The notes under the pieces are model-generated. The model worked only from the letters and a program-made list of their open reading frames with translations, had not been told where the DNA came from and did not search any database. This document shows positions 3,026 through 12,650 of a DNA stretch of 12,650 nt, piece by piece. The stretch lies in the IMG/VR virus record IMGVR_UViG_2850756110_000008; one strand, written 5' to 3'. This DNA is from a virus. Taxonomy: Duplodnaviria; Heunggongvirae; Uroviricota; Caudoviricetes. Every line of letters starts with the position of its first letter. The stretch's first letter is position 1. Made by a program: the position numbers and the translations under genes.

Positions 3026-3415
3026 TCAGGCTGCTGCACCCGCCGGTTTCTCGTACTTACTGATAGTGATCTCGACCTTCCCTTCCGGGATAACCGGTCC
3101 CCACTCCACCAGCATTCTTTTCACCTGACTGTCGTCTTCCCACACACCCGCGTGGGTCAGGGCGTCAAACAGCGCCTTGTTATAGTTGTTCAGATCGCGG
3201 ATCCGGTTATCCGGAGGAAACAACACGATCTCCACTGAAGCAGGTGCCGACGTTGGTTTTGGCAGACGACGTAACTGCTCAACTATTGCTGCACACGCCG
3301 CGCTCTGGAATTTGCGCCCCGCTGCGCTTATCAGGCTCTTACCAGCAAACGCCCCTTTGTTGGGGTGTCGCCAGTACGTGTTCACGCTGGGCGGAAAAGG
3401 CAGTATTAGCTTCAT
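3026..3415 (-). CDS. rusA: Crossover junction endodeoxyribonuclease RusA (Holliday junction resolvase)
   Basis: Motifs LPFPPSVNTYWR and DLNNYNKALFDALTHAGVWEDDSQV match the RusA family. Start overlaps the upstream stop as ATGA. Confidence 0.85.
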   Translation of the reverse strand: MKLILPFPPSVNTYWRHPNKGAFAGKSLISAAGRKFQSAACAAIVEQLRRLPKPTSAPASVEIVLFPPDNRIRDLNNYNKALFDALTHAGVWEDDSQVKRMLVEWGPVIPEGKVEITISKYEKPAGAAA

Positions 3416-3738
3416 ACTTTCAGGCCCCTCTCATGTAACCAGTGGGCTGCACGCAGCTTGGCGTTTTCCTCACCGGCAAGCAGTGAGCGGATAATCCCGA
3501 CCGCCTCGCTGTCGTCGTCCTTCACCGCGGTATGAAGAGTGATACCACGGGCCACACCACGCTTTATCGTGATGACGCCTTTTTTCTCCAGTGCTCTAAG
3601 ATGCTCCACCGCTGCATTCACTGAACGGTATCCCAGCATGGTTGCCACCTCCTGATTGGTTGGCGGGAAGCCACGTTCTTTCTGGTAAGAAATCAGCATA
3701 TCCAGCACCTGCTGCTGGCATTGAGTTAACGTCGTCAT
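3412..3738 (-). CDS. LexA N-terminal DNA-binding-domain-only protein (no peptidase domain)
   Basis: The 108-aa product aligns by eye with the LexA winged-helix domain (LTxxQQxVxDxI......GxPPTxxExAxxLGxRSxNAAxEHLxALxxKGVIxIxxGxxRGIxL). It lacks the Ala-Gly cleavage site and Ser/Lys peptidase domain. ATGA overlaps with both neighbours. Confidence 0.75.
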   Translation of the reverse strand: MTTLTQCQQQVLDMLISYQKERGFPPTNQEVATMLGYRSVNAAVEHLRALEKKGVITIKRGVARGITLHTAVKDDDSEAVGIIRSLLAGEENAKLRAAHWLHERGLKV

Positions 3739-4388
3739 GCCGCCATCTCCCTGACAAGTTTTTCTGCCTGCTGGCGAACTTGCGCCAGAAAGGCCTCACC
3801 ACATGCCTCAAGTTCATCGCGCCCGATGTAGCTGATTGCCGGTCCCTTCCAGGTCTTGTCGAAAACGGCAATAGCACCAGCGAAGAAAGCACCGGTTGGC
3901 ACCTGCTTCTCGTCTTTCGGGATAAACCAGGCAGGCAGTTCAAAACCAATACGCCCGCGAATAAAAGCAATATGATCCGCATCTTCCGGCCACCACACTT
4001 CGCTGGTGGCAGCTTTGATCAGGAAAACATAGCGCCCGCCCTTATCACGCATGGCACTGGCATGTTTCATGATGTAACGCATGCCGGTGATGTATTGCCC
4101 CTCATGCTGACTGGCGCGGCTGTATGGAGGATTTCCAAAGGCAGCACCTTTAAGCTCCGCAAGACGTTCTGACCAGTCATGCGCCAGCGCGTTGTCTTCC
4201 GCCGTGTAATACGCGGCACATTTGGCGTTATCACCGTCAGTAAACAGATCCAGAACAAACGGGCCAAACAGGGTGTTAATTCCCCAGAAAATGTTGTCCG
4301 GTGTGCGCCACTGATCGCCCACTTCCTTCAGTTCATGGGCTGGTTTGTTTCGCAACTCCACCAGCGCCTGGCAATATTTATTACTCAT
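3735..4388 (-). CDS. Phage Dam-type DNA N6-adenine methyltransferase
   Basis: Catalytic NPPY motif (GNPPYSRA) and overall similarity to phage Dam (PF05869-type) proteins. Start taken at the ATG at 4388, which overlaps the upstream stop (TAATG), rather than the ORF-track start at 4421. Confidence 0.8.
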   Translation of the reverse strand: MSNKYCQALVELRNKPAHELKEVGDQWRTPDNIFWGINTLFGPFVLDLFTDGDNAKCAAYYTAEDNALAHDWSERLAELKGAAFGNPPYSRASQHEGQYITGMRYIMKHASAMRDKGGRYVFLIKAATSEVWWPEDADHIAFIRGRIGFELPAWFIPKDEKQVPTGAFFAGAIAVFDKTWKGPAISYIGRDELEACGEAFLAQVRQQAEKLVREMAA

Positions 4389-4882
4389 TAAGCCCCCACG
4401 TAATTCCCTGACAGATACCACTCATCACCCGATACAGCGCGCTTGCTGCTTTTCCGTAAGCACCGCTCACGACGCGCCAGAAAATTGTTTCGTTCTGGCT
4501 GGGAGTGGCTTTCACGGAATGCCGCCATCCACACCGTTGCAGCACGACGGTATAAGCCCCTGGACTCCAGTTCTTCAGCCTGGCGGGTCAGGCACAAAAT
4601 CACCCGGGGACCGTTAGTGCCGACATAGAAATTGCGCACAGGTCTGGTTTCTCGAACTGATTGTGGTCCCGGTTCCTGCGCTCTCTCAGTCAGGCGCGGG
4701 AAATGTCTGCGTGTATCTCCTTCACAACGGTGAGCCACACGCCCACTCTGACGTAACTTGCTTGCAGACTGCAGAACGCGCTGCCGTGAGTAACCTGCAA
4801 AAGCATCCGCAATGTCTCCGGAAGTACACCCCGGATGGGCTTCAATGAATTTCTGAACGTCATTCAAAAGACTCATGCTCAC
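4388..4882 (-). CDS. PerC/Pch-like regulator with N-terminal winged-helix-like region
   Basis: C-terminal half carries AEELESRGLYRRAATVWMAAF, the same motif as the PerC-like ORF at 10141 (AEELESKGLYRRAAARWMEVM). Start is either GTG at 4882 or ATG at 4876. Translationally coupled to neighbours. Confidence 0.6.
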   Translation of the reverse strand: MSMSLLNDVQKFIEAHPGCTSGDIADAFAGYSRQRVLQSASKLRQSGRVAHRCEGDTRRHFPRLTERAQEPGPQSVRETRPVRNFYVGTNGPRVILCLTRQAEELESRGLYRRAATVWMAAFRESHSQPERNNFLARRERCLRKSSKRAVSGDEWYLSGNYVGA

Positions 4883-5445
4883 CCCCTGAATCCTGCCGGG
4901 ATCTGGCTGTAGTCCACGTTGTCGTAACTGGCTTTGAAGTACGGGTCTTCACGTTTTTCTGTGTGCGTGCTGACGGACGGCGATAAGCGCAGGGAAAGCT
5001 CATCCCATTTTTCCCGCAACTTCGACGGGCTGAGCACGTTACGGCACCAGAACGGATCGCGGCTGACGCGGCTGTACATCTCGCAGATTTGTTTGTGAGT
5101 ACGGCCATCCTGTACACACATCAGGCGAATTTCGTTTGCCCAGGCTGTCCAGTTCGGTTCTTTGGGACGAACCACCTCGCCGTCACATTCGGCAGCCTGC
5201 TCGTACAGGGCGATGATTTTTTTCCAGAGCCACTGTGCGCAGGTCAAATCATCCTGCGTCCCCCACTGGCGCTTTTTAGGGCTGAATACAACCGCATCAG
5301 GATGGCGAGTTAAAAAATCCTGTTCAGCCGTCTGCGTGTCCGGTTGCGAAGCGTCCGGACGAGAAGGTTTTTTATCTGACGGATCATGTTTTGATTTTAC
5401 TGACGGATCCCCGCCAGATTCTGACGGGTGAAAACCCGCTTTTTT
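4879..5445 (-). CDS. Phage early/nin-region protein, 5'-truncated by IS66-family insertion (function unknown)
   Basis: The ORF runs open up to and into the IS66 terminal repeat (the track's TTG start at 5460 is inside IS sequence). Translation is protein-like (…CAQWLWKKIIALYEQAAECDGEVV…). First gene of the coupled operon. Confidence 0.5.
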   Translation of the reverse strand, partial: KKAGFHPSESGGDPSVKSKHDPSDKKPSRPDASQPDTQTAEQDFLTRHPDAVVFSPKKRQWGTQDDLTCAQWLWKKIIALYEQAAECDGEVVRPKEPNWTAWANEIRLMCVQDGRTHKQICEMYSRVSRDPFWCRNVLSPSKLREKWDELSLRLSPSVSTHTEKREDPYFKASYDNVDYSQIPAGFRG

Positions 5446-5482
5446 GTAAGCGTGCAGCAAGAACCGTATTGACGGGGATGTG

Positions 5483-7021
5483 TTATTCAGTCGGCAGTGC
5501 TACGCGCCAGGGGAGCAGTTCGCCGACCCGGTTTATCGGCCAGTCGGCTATGACGTCAAGGACATAGCGGAGGTAGCTTTCTGGCTCCACTCCGTTCAGT
5601 TTGCACGTCCCGATCAGGCTGTACAGCAGCGCTCCCCGCTCTCCTCCATGATCCGAACCGAAGAACAGGTAGTTTTTGCGGCCCAGACTGACCATCCGCA
5701 ACGCATTTTCAGCGATGTTATTGTCCGCCTCAGCCCAGCCATCATCTGCATAGTACGTCAGCGCCGGCCACTGGTTCAGGGCGTATGCGAACGCTTTCGC
5801 CAGTTCTGAGTGTCGCGACAGGGTTTTCATCTTTTCACGCAGCCAGCTTTCCAGGGATTTCAGCAGCGGTTTCGTTTTCAACTGACGTTCGGCAAGGCGC
5901 TGCTCCGCCGTCATTCCCCTTATCTCTGCCTCGATGGCGTACAGTTCGCCGATCCGTTTCAGCGCTTCCTCCGTCAGGGCTGACGGGGTGCGAACGTGCA
6001 CATCGTGGATTTTACGGCGGGCGTGAGCCCAACAGGCGGCTTCCGTTATCCGGCCATCCCGGTACAGCTCGTTGAACCCGGCGTATGCATCCGCCTGCAG
6101 TACACCACTGAACCCCGCAAGATGGGTCTGCGGATGGATGCCTTTTCTGTCCGGGCTGTAAGCGAACCACACCGCCGGCGCCAGCGTTGACCCGGCGTTA
6201 CGGTCGTCACGAACGTAGGTCCATAACCGCCCGGTCTTCGTTTTCTTATTGCCTGGCAACAGCACCGGGACAGGCGTGTCATCAGCATGGAGCTTACCGT
6301 CAGTCAGCACATAGTCCTGAAGCGCTTCTTCCAGCGGTGACAGTAGCCGGCAGCATGCATCCACCCAGCCCGACAGCAGTGAACGACTCAGCTCCACGCC
6401 CTGGCGGCCGTACATTTCAGACTGGCGGTACAGCGGGGTGTGCTCTGCATACTTTGAGATCAGCACGCGGGCCAGCAGCCCCGGTCCTGCGATACCCCGC
6501 TCGATGGGCCGTGAAGGCGCGGGGGCCTGCACGATGGCATCGCACTGAGTACAGGCATGCTTTTCACGTACAGTCCGGATAACCCGGAAGACGCTGCGCA
6601 TCAACTCCAGCTGTTCGGCGGCATCCTCACCCGGATAGCTCAGTGAGCCTCCACATTCCGGGCAGCATGACGCTGCCGGCAGCAGCCGTTTTTCATCGCG
6701 GGGGAGTGATTCGGGGAACGGTTTGCGGGTGCGGGTTTGACGCAGCGGGCGCTGCACGGCCGGGTCGTCAACCCGACCGGTAAGGGTATCACTTTCTTTC
6801 TGAAGTGCCTTCAGGTCAGCTTCCATCTGTGCGATACGACGGGAGACTTTTTCGGAGCGGCTGCCGAAGTTCATCCGGCGCAGCTTATCCAGCTGTGCCT
6901 GCAGATGGTCTATTTCGCGTTCACGCTCGTTCAGCTTTTCCAGCAGGGCACGGTTCAGCGCCTCCTGTTCGGCAAGGAGACGTTTCAGTGCATTGATATC
7001 GTCAGGAAGTGAGCTGCTCAT
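5483..7021 (-). CDS. IS66-family transposase (TnpC/orf3)
   Basis: 512 aa with N-terminal coiled-coil/leucine zipper, CxxC...CxxC zinc finger (CPECGG...CTQC) and conserved LHADDTPV and TGRLWTY motifs. Confidence 0.9.
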
Positions 7022-7069
7022 ACCGGGTATATTACCAGGCTCATTCAGCGTCGACCAGGATAAAGAGGC

Positions 7070-7417
7070 TTACAACATAGTCAGGGACGTAAGCAGTCTT
7101 TTAGGCTGCCGCCAGTCGATACCTTCAAGGAGCATCGCCAGCTGTGCCGGTGTGAGGAACACTTTGCCATCCCGGGCTGACGGCCAGGCGAAGCGGCCGC
7201 GCTCCAGCCGTTTGGTCAGCAGACACAGTCCATCGCCGGTAGACCAGAGGAGCTTTACCTGACTGCCATTACGCCCACGGAAGATAAAAACGTGACCTGA
7301 CATCGGATCGTCTTTCAGCGTCGTCTGCACCTTTGCCGCCAGGCCGTTGAAGCCATTTCTCATATCGGTGATACCGGCAACCAGCCAAATTTTGGTCCCG
7401 GAAGGTAACGGGATCAT
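7070..7417 (-). CDS. IS66 Orf2 (TnpB) accessory protein
   Basis: 115-aa protein (…LVAGITDMRNGFNGLAAKVQ…LWSTGDGLCLLTKRLERGRF…) typical of the IS66 orf2 family. ATGA overlap with orf1. Confidence 0.85.
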   Translation of the reverse strand: MIPLPSGTKIWLVAGITDMRNGFNGLAAKVQTTLKDDPMSGHVFIFRGRNGSQVKLLWSTGDGLCLLTKRLERGRFAWPSARDGKVFLTPAQLAMLLEGIDWRQPKRLLTSLTML

Positions 7418-7794
7418 CGCTTCAGTTCCTGTATCAGCAGAGTCAGGAGCTTTTCGCTGACATTGCCATTGAAGCGGAGCGTCCCGTGCCGGAACGTTAC
7501 CTCACAGCTGATACTGAGGGTTTCCGGATCCTCTGCGAGCGATTCTGGCTGTTCGGCAGCTGCATCGAGAGTCACAGGAAGTAGCTGGGGGCTCTCTGAA
7601 GAAGGTAATAGCAGCTTTCCCTCGCGCCATTGTTGTCGCCATTTGAACAACAGATTGGCGTTAATGCCATTTTCAAGAGCAAGTTTTGAGATGGATATCC
7701 CGGGTTCACAGGAGGCAGCAACGAGCTGCTGTTTAAATTCGGGAGGATAATTAGGGCAGCCTTTTCGCCTGCCGGGATTCACATTTTTCTGCAT
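7414..7794 (-). CDS. IS66 Orf1 (TnpA) accessory protein
   Basis: Helix-turn-helix-like small protein in the first position of the IS66 operon. ATG at 7794 (MQKNVNPGRRK…) preferred; the ORF-track start at 7815 is a GTG. Confidence 0.8.
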   Translation of the reverse strand: MQKNVNPGRRKGCPNYPPEFKQQLVAASCEPGISISKLALENGINANLLFKWRQQWREGKLLLPSSESPQLLPVTLDAAAEQPESLAEDPETLSISCEVTFRHGTLRFNGNVSEKLLTLLIQELKR

Positions 7795-7946
7795 ATCTGA
7801 CACTTTGGTTCCCACTACTTATTTGGTGGACACCACTTTGTCTAATTCGTCAGATTCTGACCAGACGGTTCAGGCTGTACGCTGATATGACTTTCCGTGT
7901 CAAACCGGAATCTCTAATTTTGACGATTTTCTTTTTAGGTTTAATT

Positions 7947-8148: not shown

Positions 8149-9276
8149 TTATTTGTGACATTGTGGTTGTTGTGCGACAGACATTGCTATTCGGCCCATA
8201 TCCCAGATAAAACCCGCCAGCTCACGTGCAACAGCAACAATTGTAATATTGACATTCTTTCCTTTGGCCTGAAGTTTTCGATACCTCTTACAGAGCCTGA
8301 GTTGAGCATCCCATGCTCTGTCAATGACGGGGCGGGGTAAATTTTCCTGCCTTTTTTGTATTGCCGGACTGATGCGTGCCGGATGACGGTAACTCCACGC
8401 TGCCTCGACCAATAGCTTTCTGGCATAGCTGTTTCCGGCTTTGGTAATGCTGCCCTGATGTCTGCTTCCACCCGATGAATATTCTGATGGCGTGATACCA
8501 AACCATGACATCAGTTGTCGTGGATGTTCAAAACGGGTCAGATCACCCAGTTCAGAAATTAATCCAACCGCAGTAATAAACTGAATCCCTCGCATGGCTT
8601 GCAGCGCCTCTACTACCGGATACAGCCTCCATTCGGTAACGGCCTCCTTCAGGGCGGATTCCAGCCGTTCACATTGTGCCTGCCGGTCTTCTATTGTACG
8701 ACGGTGTTCGTCAAAAGCTAATTGTCGCCAGGGACTTTCGAATGAGTATTTGCTGAGCCAGCGTCGGTGTGCAGGGCCCCAATCTGCTCGCCCGACATAA
8801 TGGACCCCATGAACCAGAAGAAACGATTTCAGACGTTGCCTTGCATGCCGTAAATCATCGCGGGCAGATGCCCATGCCCGGGCCAAATCCCGGAATGCCT
8901 CATCTTCAATGCCGGGTACGTAGACAGCAGAAAGATCTCCTGCACGCAGTGAACGCACAAGTCTGATGGCATCACGGCGATCGGTTTTAACCCGCTCCCC
9001 CGGTTTTTTCGGGATAAGTGAGGGGGCGCAGACCATGCAGTCAAAACCGGATTTCACCAGCCGACGATAAAGTCCATAACCACAGGGCCCCGCTTCATAA
9101 ACGATACTGACCTGCGATGACTTTGACCTGAGACGTTTACAAAGATTCTGAATATCAGTAGGTGATGTGCCAATTTTACCCATCAGTTCAACAGGTTCTG
9201 AATTGATAGCATAAGCGACAGTAATCGATTCTTTGTGAACATCTAACCCGACGTACAATGTGTTATTGTTGTTCAT
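8149..9276 (-). CDS. IS110-family transposase / DEDD recombinase
   Basis: 375 aa from the ATG at 9276, with GGAGG 7 nt upstream. N-terminal RuvC-like DEDD motifs (YVGLDVHK, IVYEAG, KTDRRDA) and C-terminal Tnp domain with conserved Ser (GITPSEYSSGGS). The ORF track extends the start to 9324, which lacks an RBS. Confidence 0.85.
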   Translation of the reverse strand: MNNNNTLYVGLDVHKESITVAYAINSEPVELMGKIGTSPTDIQNLCKRLRSKSSQVSIVYEAGPCGYGLYRRLVKSGFDCMVCAPSLIPKKPGERVKTDRRDAIRLVRSLRAGDLSAVYVPGIEDEAFRDLARAWASARDDLRHARQRLKSFLLVHGVHYVGRADWGPAHRRWLSKYSFESPWRQLAFDEHRRTIEDRQAQCERLESALKEAVTEWRLYPVVEALQAMRGIQFITAVGLISELGDLTRFEHPRQLMSWFGITPSEYSSGGSRHQGSITKAGNSYARKLLVEAAWSYRHPARISPAIQKRQENLPRPVIDRAWDAQLRLCKRYRKLQAKGKNVNITIVAVARELAGFIWDMGRIAMSVAQQPQCHK

Positions 9277-9426
9277 GCTGGCCTCCGTGGTGGAAATACC
9301 GGGGGGTAGCAACAGCTCACCCATGCGGCTCTGACAACGATGTTAACCCGCGTTAAATATCCCACGTTGGCCAGCATCTGTCTCACGGAAAGTCATACTG
9401 CCTTACTTTCCAATGGGCACTCATGT

Positions 9427-9882
9427 TTATACGCTGACCTTACAATCAATCACCGCTTTTAAATTTTCAGCATTGCTTCCCTGACGCTTCCACGCGCTGT
9501 AAATATCTTTATCCCACGCTTTACCAGCTTTTGTTTGATAGCCTGCTTCATTGATCCGTTCAGCTATCACACGCCCATTATCAAATCCCTGTTGGATGGT
9601 ATCGGCAATGATCTTTATAACTGCCGTTTCGTTATATGGCTTTGGTGGGATGTTCGGCTTTCCGGCAATAAGCGACGCAGCGGCTTTTTCCATGCGCTCC
9701 ACCAGCCCAAGCATTCGTGAATCAATAGACTTTTCCGGCTGTCCCAGCTTCATGCGAATCGCATCAACAAGCCAGGAGGTTTTATCCCCTCCAGAAGCGA
9801 GAACAGACCGATTAAACTCATCCTGCAATTCAGATGGGATGCGGAACGCGATCAGATTAGATTTGCTCATTGCAAAGACCAT
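9427..9882 (-). CDS. Hypothetical protein, possibly ribbon-helix-helix (Arc-like) DNA-binding at the N-terminus
   Basis: 151-aa protein-like ORF divergent from the PerC-like gene. N-terminus NLIAFRIPSELQDEFNRSVLASGGDKTSWLVDAIRMKL resembles RHH folds. A palindromic operator-like site lies 20-50 bp upstream. Stop is 30 bp from the IS110 end, so the C-terminus may be altered. Confidence 0.5.
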   Translation of the reverse strand: MVFAMSKSNLIAFRIPSELQDEFNRSVLASGGDKTSWLVDAIRMKLGQPEKSIDSRMLGLVERMEKAAASLIAGKPNIPPKPYNETAVIKIIADTIQQGFDNGRVIAERINEAGYQTKAGKAWDKDIYSAWKRQGSNAENLKAVIDCKVSV

Positions 9883-9899
9883 ATCAGTGAGTAATATCC

Positions 9900-9931
9900 A
9901 TACAGTATACCACTGTATAACACTGTTATAC
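9900..9931. promoter_or_regulatory. Overlapping palindromic operator-like sites upstream of the 151-aa gene
   Basis: ATACAGT-N5-ACTGTAT (9900-9918) and a perfect 17-bp palindrome GTATAACA-C-TGTTATAC (9915-9931). A minus-strand TATACT -10-like hexamer overlaps. Confidence 0.4.
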
Positions 9932-9983
9932 GCTCAAATATCAGCCAGAAAATAACGGACCAATCACAAAGCTATCGCTGTGT

Positions 9984-10104
9984 TGTTGGTTCAGAGCTGG
10001 GCTGTGTTGGTTCAAAATGAGTTGATGTTGGTTCAATATTTTAGAAAAACATAATAAAAACAACGATCTTTACAAATTGAACCAACTGAACCAACTGAAC
10101 CAAC
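9984..10104. repeat. Iteron-like array: six copies of GTTGGTTCA (3 direct at 21-bp spacing, 42-bp AT-rich spacer, 3 inverted in 9-bp tandem)
   Basis: TGTTGGTTCA at 9984-9993, 10005-10014 and 10026-10035. AT-rich 10036-10077. TGAACCAAC at 10078-10086, 10087-10095 and 10096-10104. Confidence 0.7.
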
Positions 10105-10135
10105 ACCTTTTTGCTTATCTATATAATCTGAGAGG
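10096..10135 (+). promoter_or_regulatory. Putative promoter and RBS of the PerC-like gene, overlapped by the inverted repeats
   Basis: Perfect TATAAT at 10122-10127 and GAGAGG at 10130-10135 before the ATG at 10141. The -35 region coincides with the TGAACCAAC repeats. Confidence 0.3.
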
Positions 10136-10140
10136 CAGAA

Positions 10141-10422
10141 ATGATAAGGGACAGGAAAGCTGAAGAGCTGGAGTCAAAAGGGCTATACCGGAGAGCTGCC
10201 GCACGATGGATGGAAGTCATGCTGTTATGCACCGAGGACGATGATCGGGAATGGATAAAGCGCCGCCGTGAAACGTGTCTGGAGAACGTGAAGCGCCCGC
10301 CCGTGAAGGTTGAGGAATTTGGCGACCTGCATAAAGCTGTTACCGAAACGCAACACCGCATGGGGATAGCGCAACCGAACGGTAACGCCTTCCGGTTAAA
10401 TGGCGGCAAGAGGCAAAGGTAG
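10141..10422 (+). CDS. PerC family transcriptional activator-like protein
   Basis: 93 aa with the N-terminal motif RDRKAEELESKGLYRRAAARWMEV characteristic of PerC/Pch proteins as I recall them. Good RBS. Confidence 0.7.
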   Translation: MIRDRKAEELESKGLYRRAAARWMEVMLLCTEDDDREWIKRRRETCLENVKRPPVKVEEFGDLHKAVTETQHRMGIAQPNGNAFRLNGGKRQR

Positions 10423-10718
10423 ACCACCAGAGGGAAATCATCCTCTGGCTGGCGGTTTCTGGTATTTCGGGACAAGTACGCGCGCGCGTAGCACCCAATC
10501 GGTGAGGAAATAGCGGCGACCTGAATGGTCAAAATCACAACGCAGCTATCCCCGTAAGCAGCGCTTAACGGAATAGCAGTAACCTGAATCCAGTGGGGAG
10601 GGGTAGTCAAATCTCTACAGCCCTGACTATCCGGGACTGCCCGCCCCATCGTTTTTTTATACCCGCGAAAAATGAAATTTAATCCGGGCGTGTTTCATCC
10701 TTCCAGAGGGTATGACGT

Positions 10719-10904
10719 ATGACACCACGCGAAATAGCCTTATTGACCATCGCCAAACTTGAGCACGGAGGCCACCAGCTTACACAGGCAGATCAACGGG
10801 AGATAGAACGATCAGTTAATGCCGATATAGCCCGGCGCGACAGGTTCCGCGAAATGATGCGAGCACCTGCCTACCAGTGGAAGAAGCCAGCGCCGCGCAG
10901 GTAG
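10719..10904 (+). CDS. Hypothetical small protein (61 aa)
   Basis: GAGGG 8 nt upstream of ATG; charged helical-looking product; no family recognised. Confidence 0.4.
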   Translation: MTPREIALLTIAKLEHGGHQLTQADQREIERSVNADIARRDRFREMMRAPAYQWKKPAPRR

Positions 10905-11024
10905 ATATGGGATTATTCCACATGTACCTTATGCGTATTAAGCAAATTTCCTTTATTCACCTTTACAGAATTGTGAGTACGTCAGTATCGTTATCCTTCC
11001 GATTCGCATTTATTCAGGATTTGC

Positions 11025-11567
11025 ATGTACCAGCTAAAGATAACCATCCGAGACAGCAAACCACCTATATGGCGGCGTGTGCTGGTTCCAGAGCAAATCC
11101 CCTTTAGTAAACTTCATGCCGTGATCCAGTTAGCTTTTGGCTGGAATGACGAACACCTGTATATGTTCGAGAAAGGGCGTAAAGGTGATCCAGGTAGCGA
11201 GTATCGCGTATGGGGTGAGGATGAAAGCATGGGTAACGCGGCAATCACGCCACTATGGGCGGCGCTCCAGAATGAGGGTGACAAGCTGGTTTACACGTAT
11301 GACTTTGGCGACTGGTGGGATTGCGTCATTGTGCTGGAGAAGCAAACACACGATACGAGTAATCAGCCCATTAGCTGCCTGCGTGGGAAAGGCACCACCC
11401 CGGCGGAAAACTCAGGCGGCTTGCATGGTTACAATGAATTGCTATTACAGGCCAGAGAGTCTGATAATCCTGAGCAGGCCGAGATCCACAATTTCCTGAT
11501 GCTGGATATTGAACGCCGGGTTTACGACCTGAGCCGCATCAACGACAGATTGCAGGCTATTAACTGA
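11025..11567 (+). CDS. Plasmid pRiA4b ORF-3-like family protein
   Basis: N-terminus MYQLKITIRDSKPPIWRRVLVPEQIPFSKLHAVIQLAFGWNDEHLYMF matches the conserved start of PF07929-type proteins as I recall them. Confidence 0.65.
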   Translation: MYQLKITIRDSKPPIWRRVLVPEQIPFSKLHAVIQLAFGWNDEHLYMFEKGRKGDPGSEYRVWGEDESMGNAAITPLWAALQNEGDKLVYTYDFGDWWDCVIVLEKQTHDTSNQPISCLRGKGTTPAENSGGLHGYNELLLQARESDNPEQAEIHNFLMLDIERRVYDLSRINDRLQAIN

Positions 11568-11919
11568 CCCGCATGTATTCACCTGATATTGCGTTGTCAG
11601 CGCCGCCAGTATCGCGCATAACAGCGCACTGACCGGGTAAACCGTAGCGCACGACCGTTGCGTTAGTATCACCGCCGCGCCGTATCTGGCGCGATTCATA
11701 CACTGTCACCCGCTCAAGCAGTCCACCAGCAACCATGCTTTCCAGTGTGCGCCGGGTTGATTCGAGCTGGTGACGCTTATCGAACGACACCATGCCATGA
11801 AGCAGGTAGGCCACACCCGACACATCGAACGGCGGCGCACCAATCTCACCAGTCACCCATTCGAGGTTATCCGGTTCAAAGTAGCTAAGTATCTCTTTTT
11901 TGCGACTGGTCATTCTCAT
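11560..11919 (-). CDS. Hypothetical protein (119 aa), convergent with and overlapping the previous gene by 8 bp
   Basis: Protein-like composition; AGGA 11 nt upstream of ATG at 11919; no family recognised. Confidence 0.45.
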   Translation of the reverse strand: MRMTSRKKEILSYFEPDNLEWVTGEIGAPPFDVSGVAYLLHGMVSFDKRHQLESTRRTLESMVAGGLLERVTVYESRQIRRGGDTNATVVRYGLPGQCAVMRDTGGADNAISGEYMRVS

Positions 11920-12146
11920 GGCTGGCTGATTCCTTATTGTGGGATAGCACTATCATACAATAAGTGGGTTAAAGGGAGAGCGTTACCGCCTGATATGCTG
12001 TATGAATAACAACCAAATTTCAGGGGCGGAAAAAGATATGGGGGTACTTTTGGGGGTATCTATAAAAAATGAACAATAAAAAAGGCAACAAAAACAAAGC
12101 TTATCGCCTATGTGTATTGTTCCTATTATCCATTTAAATCAATAAG

Positions 12147-12650
12147 TTACACATCATTAGTACGTTCCTTATTTCTTGACTGGGACAAATTTGGGACCGA
12201 TGGGTTCAGAATCGAGTCTATTTGCCGTGCGTGTTCGGTAAGGTGATTAGGTGCGAGGTGAGCATATCGACGAACCATTTCGATAGACTCCCAGCCTCCC
12301 ATTTCCTGTAACACTGATAACGGGACTCCGGCTTGAACCAGCCAACTTGCCCAGGTGTGTCTCAAGTCGTGAAATCTGAAATCATCAATACCTGCTCGTC
12401 TCAGCGCCGCTTTCCAGGCTGTGTTTGCGTCATACCGCATCTTCCTGACTGTTGGCGCTTTCGTTCCGTCTGGTTTGGTACAGCTTTCCTTATACACAAA
12501 TACCCAACGGTGATGATTCCCGATTTGTTTTTTCAATACGCGACATGCAGTATCATTCAGCGCAACGCCAATTGCGCGGTTTGATTTACTCTCTTCCGGG
12601 TTTATCCATGCCACCCGGTGAGGTGTACTGGCAATAGCGGACACTACCAT
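12147..12650 (-). CDS. Tyrosine-type phage integrase, C-terminal catalytic domain (5' end beyond window)
   Basis: Conserved HDLRHTWAS (His-x-x-Arg) and catalytic Tyr context EMVRRYAHL. The ORF is open to the window edge. Confidence 0.9.

Follow-up and report, generated by a model that had tools for sequence, protein, structure and literature searches.

The window analysed here is the whole 12,650-nt stretch of tailed-phage (Caudoviricetes) DNA, IMG/VR record IMGVR_UViG_2850756110_000008; related loci are referred to by L numbers. The left part of the window includes a lambdoid nin/Q region. Towards the right end lies an intergenic array of short repeats, followed by a perC-family gene, a 61-aa ORF, a pRiA4b-ORF3-family gene, a 119-aa ORF, and the C-terminal part of an integrase, in that order. 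The features that matter for the array are as follows.

4388-4882: second PerC-domain protein, 164 aa, YfdN-like
4879-5460: lambda-O-like replication gene, C-terminal 193 aa (PHROG 391), cut by an IS66-family element
5483-7815: IS66-family element
8149-9324: IS110 transposase gene
9406-9409: left limit of homology to the intact islands, where the ISSso6-like IS110 element stops (IS match up to about 9409)
9427-9870, minus strand: hypothetical gene of the left flank, 147 aa, cargo, no Pfam family
9985-10035, plus strand: inner arm of the probable origin unit, three spaced iterons GTTGGTTCA (9985-9993, 10006-10014, and 10027-10035; 21 bp start to start)
10036-10077: AT-rich spacer between the iteron arms, 42 bp, 83% A+T, putative DNA-unwinding region
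10078-10104, minus strand: outer arm of the probable origin unit, a head-to-tail tandem triplet with a 9-bp period (10078-10086, 10087-10095, and 10096-10104; TGAACCAAC three times when read on the plus strand)
10105-10140, plus strand: conserved post-origin leader and candidate perC promoter, with ACCTTTTTGCTTATC, TATAAT (10122-10127), and the Shine-Dalgarno sequence GAGAGG (10130-10135)
10141-10422, plus strand: perC-family gene, 93 aa (Pfam PF06069, E = 3.7e-30)

Six exact copies of GTTGGTTCA are present in the window, three per strand, and the array had been described to the base in the preliminary description: six repeats, direct copies spaced by 21 bp, a 42-bp AT-rich stretch, and inverted copies in 9-bp tandem. 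In dinucleotide-preserving shuffles of the window, the mean number of exact copies is 0.13 and the maximum is 1, and six copies are reached in none of 200 shuffles. The sole other near-match to the iteron in the window, GCTGGTTCA at 12334, is at chance level. The iteron can be extended to the 10-mer TGTTGGTTCA. The A+T content of the whole window is 48%, much lower than that of the spacer, where the local GC content falls to a minimum of 20%. The right part of the spacer, AAAACAAC-GATC-TTTACAAAT, is conserved among relatives, and the spacer measures 43 bp in each of the nine further distinct versions of the unit that we examined, the window version having lost one A from an A-run. This 1-bp shortening rotates the two arms relative to each other by about 34 degrees. 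When the window/L001 type is compared with the L002 type, none of the 27 iteron bases but 15 of the 24 inter-iteron bases differ, a comparison limited to the three spaced iterons, which are not required by retrieval, since the same substitution test on regex-selected units is partly circular. Variation in iteron number or sequence is also seen: a perC-linked variant of the unit has four tandem iterons instead of three (L049 231-266), and the outermost spaced iteron is degenerate (GTTAGTTCA) in L003 and L049. No DnaA box (TTWTNCACA with at most one mismatch) is present within 9900-10140, and the window-wide counts equal chance; the lack of a DnaA box at the array fits a self-loading initiator rather than a DnaA-dependent plasmid origin. 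An Rfam scan of the whole window gave no match.

A search of viral contigs for two tandem copies of GTTGGTTCA, along the lines proposed in the preliminary description, returned more than 120 loci. Most of these loci hold larger arrays, with up to 12 copies in about 300 bp. Among the 93 arrays of at least three copies in these motif-found contigs, 74 start about 25-50 bp past the stop codon of a primase-helicase gene, while 7 sit immediately in front of perC. As a check on retrieval bias, 80 loci were fetched by the initiator protein alone, 79 of them with a readable C-terminus; for 77 of these 79, the commonest 9-mer in the 360 bp downstream is GTTGGTTCA. Altogether, about 150 satellite loci have a GTTGGTTCA array as the sequence just 3' of a DUF927 primase-helicase gene. 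Among deposited phages, neither megablast of 9400-10700 nor tblastn of the 147-aa protein yielded a match. The only distant blastn match is Klebsiella phage P12620-1, in which the array again follows a 711-aa DUF927 gene. That initiator gene is unannotated in the 106-kb record (L216, PQ569648.1, 2164-4618), and a match to the origin array lies downstream at a distance of about 200 bp; the array is matched by Klebsiella plasmid records (H68-H72) too. A literature string search for the iteron motif gave nothing relevant among the matches listed.

The full origins have a stereotyped layout. Behind the primase gene lie tandem iterons and an AT-rich stretch, and then inverted iterons with a spacing of 11 or 21 bp. 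Beyond a central CTGGCTGGCA come spaced iterons, and a second spacer leads to tandem inverted iterons; a TATATAA-like motif precedes the next gene. Column by column, the window array can be aligned with the distal origin units of L112 and L043, which lie less than 350 bp from the primase-helicase stop codon. Its iterons start at relative positions 0, 21, 42 and, in the opposite orientation, 93, 102, 111, while those of the L112 distal unit start at 221, 242, 263 and 315, 324, 333. The primase-proximal unit of the E. coli island L001, taken as its reverse complement, can be aligned with the window array as well (blastn 77.7% over 121 nt). A tandem triplet of the window type closes the full origins of L012, L028, L090, L112, and L043. 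The CTGGCTGGCA motif is conserved between the two origin units of L001 (about 5300-5320), L012, L043, L008, L010, and L112, and the homology of L001 to the full origins stops just after it, at the start of a 7.3-kb segment of late genes and cargo. We therefore consider the array, with good confidence, to be one complete unit of an iteron-type origin from a family of enterobacterial phage satellites of the Gram-negative PICI (phage-inducible chromosomal island) type with some P4-like features. The resemblance to a phage or theta-type origin suggested in the preliminary description is thus borne out by homology, by the position 3' of a DUF927 primase-helicase gene, and by the co-variation of the iteron with the initiator hairpin described below. 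The window may hold just one half of a full origin.

The large genes upstream of the arrays encode, according to Pfam, either Zn-ribbon-primase, Toprim, and DUF927 domains or DUF927 alone; the L001-type primase-helicase is WP_001719727.1. The cognate initiator of GTTGGTTCA origins would thus be a self-loading primase-helicase of (zinc ribbon-TOPRIM-)DUF927 architecture. All GTTGGTTCA-linked initiators end in ...GRGYQRKSPRI.GRQ..., and their last 90 or so residues are predicted to form a winged-helix domain. A 153-aa AlphaFold model had a pLDDT of 54, which is too low, and was set aside, so an 88-aa C-terminal model was used instead; its fold matches are moderate, with a best Foldseek E-value of 0.04. 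In this model the hypervariable segment of the initiators is the hairpin between the last two strands, that is, the wing. Origins of unchanged layout pair each hairpin with its own iteron, giving seven hairpin/iteron pairs with few independent lineages per specificity. RKSPRI is paired with GTTGGTTCA, and the other pairs are as follows.

GRV-RE: iteron GTTGTCTCA (L006, L008, L010, L189)
RKTPRI: iteron GTCGGTTCA (L213)
KKSPRV: iteron TGTGGTTCA (L221)
IRTPRLKHL: iteron TGGGAYAA (L218)
IRMPRLRHL: iteron TGGGCTAA (L219)
KKKALRK: iteron GTGGGTTA (L220)

The PerC protein does not follow this pairing. L006 encodes a PerC 94% identical to that of the window, yet its origin iteron is GTTGTCTCA, whereas L012 encodes a PerC only 77% identical and its origin iteron is GTTGGTTCA; the iteron therefore tracks the initiator and not PerC, and a PerC autoregulatory site was rejected on this ground. 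A broader proposal is that the array now serves only as a promoter or operator for perC, bound by the initiator or another regulator, and has no part in replication. The tandem triplet does end 36 bp ahead of the perC ATG, with its last iteron covering the -35 position relative to the perfect TATAAT, and copies of the unit that have no initiator nearby keep six perfect iterons. In addition, the junction of iteron, T-rich stretch, and TATATAA recurs behind origins with other iterons (L012, L043, L008, L219, and L220), which makes a promoter adjoining the origin plausible. The overlap of the inverted triplet with a -35 region, as first described, thus stands as a position relative to TATAAT, but no recognisable -35 hexamer is present there, and a scan of 9800-10250 for consensus promoters and terminators found no sigma-70 promoter and no terminator. 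If the -10 element is at 10122-10127, the mRNA would start at about 10134, inside the Shine-Dalgarno sequence, leaving a leader of only about 7 nt. The link between the iteron and the initiator hairpin also argues against a role confined to perC, as does the distribution of the arrays, which for the most part do not have perC behind them (74 of 93). The array is not a general upstream element of perC either, because at seven perC loci of other genera perC directly follows ssb and no array lies directly upstream. A role as perC operator is compatible with origin function and need not replace it, and as the sole function of the array we regard it as improbable.

The satellite origin reading can be compared with characterised systems. 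In Gram-negative PICIs, the origin lies immediately 3' of pri/rep and perC lies downstream of pri-ori-ssb, and the pri-ori of EcCICFT073 is functional, with two iteron sets flanking an AT-rich region (Fillol-Salom et al. 2018, PMC6092414). The window array likewise has opposite iteron sets around an AT-rich region and 9-bp tandem iterons, and the gene order of L012 (pri, GTTGGTTCA origin, ssb, perC) is that of EcCICFT073. Unlike the window array, EcCICFT073 has the iteron CTGTCTACC and an initiator of a different primase family; no GTTGGTTCA was found in EcCICFT073, EcCI042, or EcCIIHE3034, whose initiators are different. The window unit also differs from the published PICIs in being detached from an initiator gene and placed directly ahead of perC. 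In the SaPI origins, an AT-rich centre is flanked on each side by at least two iterons, those of one side being opposite in orientation to those of the other, and one hexamer per side is thought to be loaded there; the SaPI Reps recognise 6-12 iterons by means of a C-terminal winged helix (PMC9371898). The initiators of the GTTGGTTCA family resemble the SaPI Reps (SaPIbov1, SaPI1, and SaPI5) in that their helicase part matches 8tch by sequence and their C-terminal model does so by fold. They thus show the PICI/SaPI-type combination of a helicase initiator with a predicted iteron-specific C-terminal winged helix. In contrast to SaPIs, the iterons here are 9-10 nt rather than 5-6 nt long, the host is Gram-negative, and the primase part is fused and related to the N-terminus of P4 alpha.

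Phage P4 shows the same design as the window in its crr units, which are annotated in X51522 at the following positions of that record.

4291-4410: first P4 crr unit
4471-4590: second P4 crr unit

Each crr unit has two tandem iterons with 9-bp spacing, a T-rich spacer of about 35 bp, and inverted copies. The crr lies directly 3' of the alpha gene; the ori, a second iteron cluster at a distance of 4.5 kb, precedes the sid operon. The P4 type I iteron, TGTTCACC, has only the core GTTCA in common with GTTGGTTCA. Residues 7-361 of the L001 initiator are 33% identical to the N-terminal primase of P4 alpha, but the helicase is of the DUF927 type, and the helicase and origin-binding parts have no detectable sequence similarity to P4 alpha; searches by sequence (single C-terminal sequence and profile) or fold did not recover the P4 alpha origin-binding domain. 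The two crr units of P4 are direct repeats, while the two units of the satellite family are mirror images. Theta plasmids such as P1, F, R6K, and RK2 carry repeated initiator sites beside an AT-rich unwinding region and may have extra clusters. The array differs from theirs in having no DnaA box by it and no adjacent Rep gene in the window, in its much shorter iterons, and in an initiator that would itself be a helicase-primase and not a DnaB-recruiting Rep.

From the homology, position, co-variation, and fold similarity described above, we infer how the unit would act in binding, melting, replication, and an effect on perC. By analogy to SaPI Rep and P4 alpha, initiator molecules would bind at both iteron arms, which have opposite orientations, and would melt the AT-rich spacer between them and load themselves as helicases. 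The putative role of 10036-10077 as the unwinding region is taken from PICI and SaPI origins (PMC6092414; PMC9371898). Occupancy of the tandem arm by the initiator should also affect perC transcription, because this arm abuts the leader of the next gene. The protein expected to bind the repeats can now be named as the RKSPRI-type primase-helicase.

No such initiator is encoded near the array, as noted in the preliminary description, and we found no primase-helicase gene anywhere in the window, so that the position immediately 3' of pri/rep seen in PICIs does not apply here. Since the initiator side is absent, the window unit is an orphan, and it could fire only if a co-resident satellite supplied an RKSPRI-type initiator in trans. 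The intact islands show two positions for the unit. In one, it is the distal half of a two-unit origin of about 310 bp directly 3' of the initiator gene. In the other, found in the E. coli island nearest to the window, it lies about 7.4 kb from the initiator gene. This island is L001, whose 12001-14750 segment corresponds to window 9406-12149 at 99.7% identity, and in which the initiator gene and a mirror-image unit lie about 7.3-7.4 kb to the left of the perC-linked unit, separated from it by P22-like ejection genes and variable cargo. The initiator also lies about 7.4-8.7 kb to the left in at least five E. coli genomes besides L001, and mirror-image units at this distance are present in L092, L110, and at least six genomes common to both match lists. 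The P4 system is characterised by two separate iteron clusters that are both required in cis. Two clusters about 7-8 kb apart are found in L001, L092, L110, and other E. coli genomes; the window has one cluster, and many relatives have a single one. In the viral contig L110 (12857-12977 and 13426-14103), a second copy of the unit has no perC; its distance from the initiator gene is 8.4 kb, and a chloramphenicol acetyltransferase gene follows it directly.

Iteron plasmids carry separate extra iteron clusters for copy control. The window unit could correspondingly be an auxiliary iteron site, either a crr-like positive element or a negative element for copy control or handcuffing, which needs a primase-proximal unit and is inert here. 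The paired mirror-image units of the closest E. coli islands fit such a site, and P4 has this two-site arrangement in its crr and its distant ori upstream of sid. On the other hand, in many elements (the '44> 53> 114< 146<' type, e.g. L019) a single unit beside the initiator gene is the only array within 6 kb, so one unit looks sufficient, and the window unit has the full anatomy of a minimal origin. An auxiliary site is thus unlikely, although it deserves more weight than the other alternatives. A wider and more speculative extension of the origin reading, which we hold to be rather doubtful, is that the E. coli/Shigella island family has a bipartite origin, with mirror units about 7 kb apart bracketing late genes and cargo, and that orphan units answer co-resident initiators. 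If this is true, a helper-induced satellite could replicate in situ from an orphan unit and amplify perC and the adjacent chromosomal DNA, or initiator binding at an orphan unit could instead switch perC on or off, and the inverted units could mediate inversion or exchange of the cargo between them.

Orphan units are also found elsewhere. L222, L223, and L002 all have the unit with no nearby initiator and no IS at the junction; in L222 the truncated rusA of a lambdoid prophage abuts the cargo, and in L223 the unit is at the yicC-dinD site. All three keep six perfect iterons, which a transcriptional role, a recent loss, or an origin role could explain alike. As these IS-free relatives also lack an initiator, an IS need not have caused its absence, and the loss of an initiator gene through an IS-associated deletion, as suggested in the preliminary description, is unproven. 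The window itself does appear to have been rearranged. The ISSso6-like IS110 element begins 20 bases beyond the 147-aa gene, and this junction is absent from complete E. coli genomes. The lambdoid block of the window is the L222 block inverted, with IS66 and IS110 (ISSso6) at the joint, and the inverted block together with the absent junction suggests an IS-mediated rearrangement in a source genome that is rich in IS elements and Shigella-like. A comparison of window 3208-5446, 9406-12150, and 12241-12618 with L222 (E. coli Survcare253) places the prophage integrase on the opposite side of the island remnant.

The 147-aa gene bears on the suggestion that the array takes part in partition control. 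By eye, the N-terminus of the 147-aa protein resembles a ribbon-helix-helix domain, and the array could be a partition centromere or operator that this protein binds. Ribbon-helix-helix centromeres typically consist of short tandem repeats, and the 147-aa gene and perC are adjacent and divergent. However, the array, with all six 9-mers and the 21-bp spacing, is kept in L002 and L003, where the left neighbour is a different gene, and the 147-aa gene is missing at all primase-linked arrays, while its homologues in L090, L020, L043, and L057 have no arrays. Because each occurs without the other, the 147-aa gene is not part of the origin, and partition control is unsupported. The protein, moreover, belongs to no Pfam family, and two overlapping perfect palindromes upstream of its gene, ATACAGT-N5-ACTGTAT (9900-9918) and TATAACA-C-TGTTATA (9916-9930), are better candidates for its own operator than the array. 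They are likely the operator/promoter region of the 147-aa gene, and we regard a centromere as very improbable. A variant in L004 lacks 10 bp (GTATACCACT) in the palindrome region.

Even less credible is the idea that an integrase binds the repeats as arm-type sites of an attP, or that they are the iterons of the truncated lambda O-like protein (4879-5460). An integrase gene does lie 2 kb to the right of the array and the O-like gene fragment 4.5 kb to the left, and the P4 attP annotation shows that arm-type sites, too, can form tandem and inverted sets. The array, however, co-occurs and co-varies with the primase-helicase and not with integrases or O proteins, and the flanking integrase and prophage are different or absent in relatives. 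Lambdoid iterons, furthermore, are located inside the O gene.

As an iteron-type origin unit, the window array is an added orphan example of a kind of element that is already known, and should the wider readings fail, it is simply a correctly recognised remnant of a known origin type. An unannotated repeat becomes a defined cis-element, with GTTGGTTCA arrays marking the origins of a common satellite family. Of 5426 complete E. coli genomes, 563 contain the intergenic region with the array; the 3' end of an L001-type initiator gene together with its origin unit is found in 364 complete E. coli genomes. The hairpin-to-iteron table is a small recognition code that could help to predict cross-activation between the origins of different satellites. 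The orphan units beside perC, a member of a virulence-regulator family, raise the question of whether resident satellites replicate or regulate DNA beyond their own borders. The left flank of the perC-linked unit varies between strains (L001 10586-12465, L003 1885-4521, L004 3565-5012, and L002 4299-4457) and contains, depending on the strain, an Abi-family gene, a pair of genes encoding 145 and 318 aa, an AlpA-like HTH gene, or the 147-aa gene; this flank looks like a cargo/defence hotspot bounded by the origin unit.
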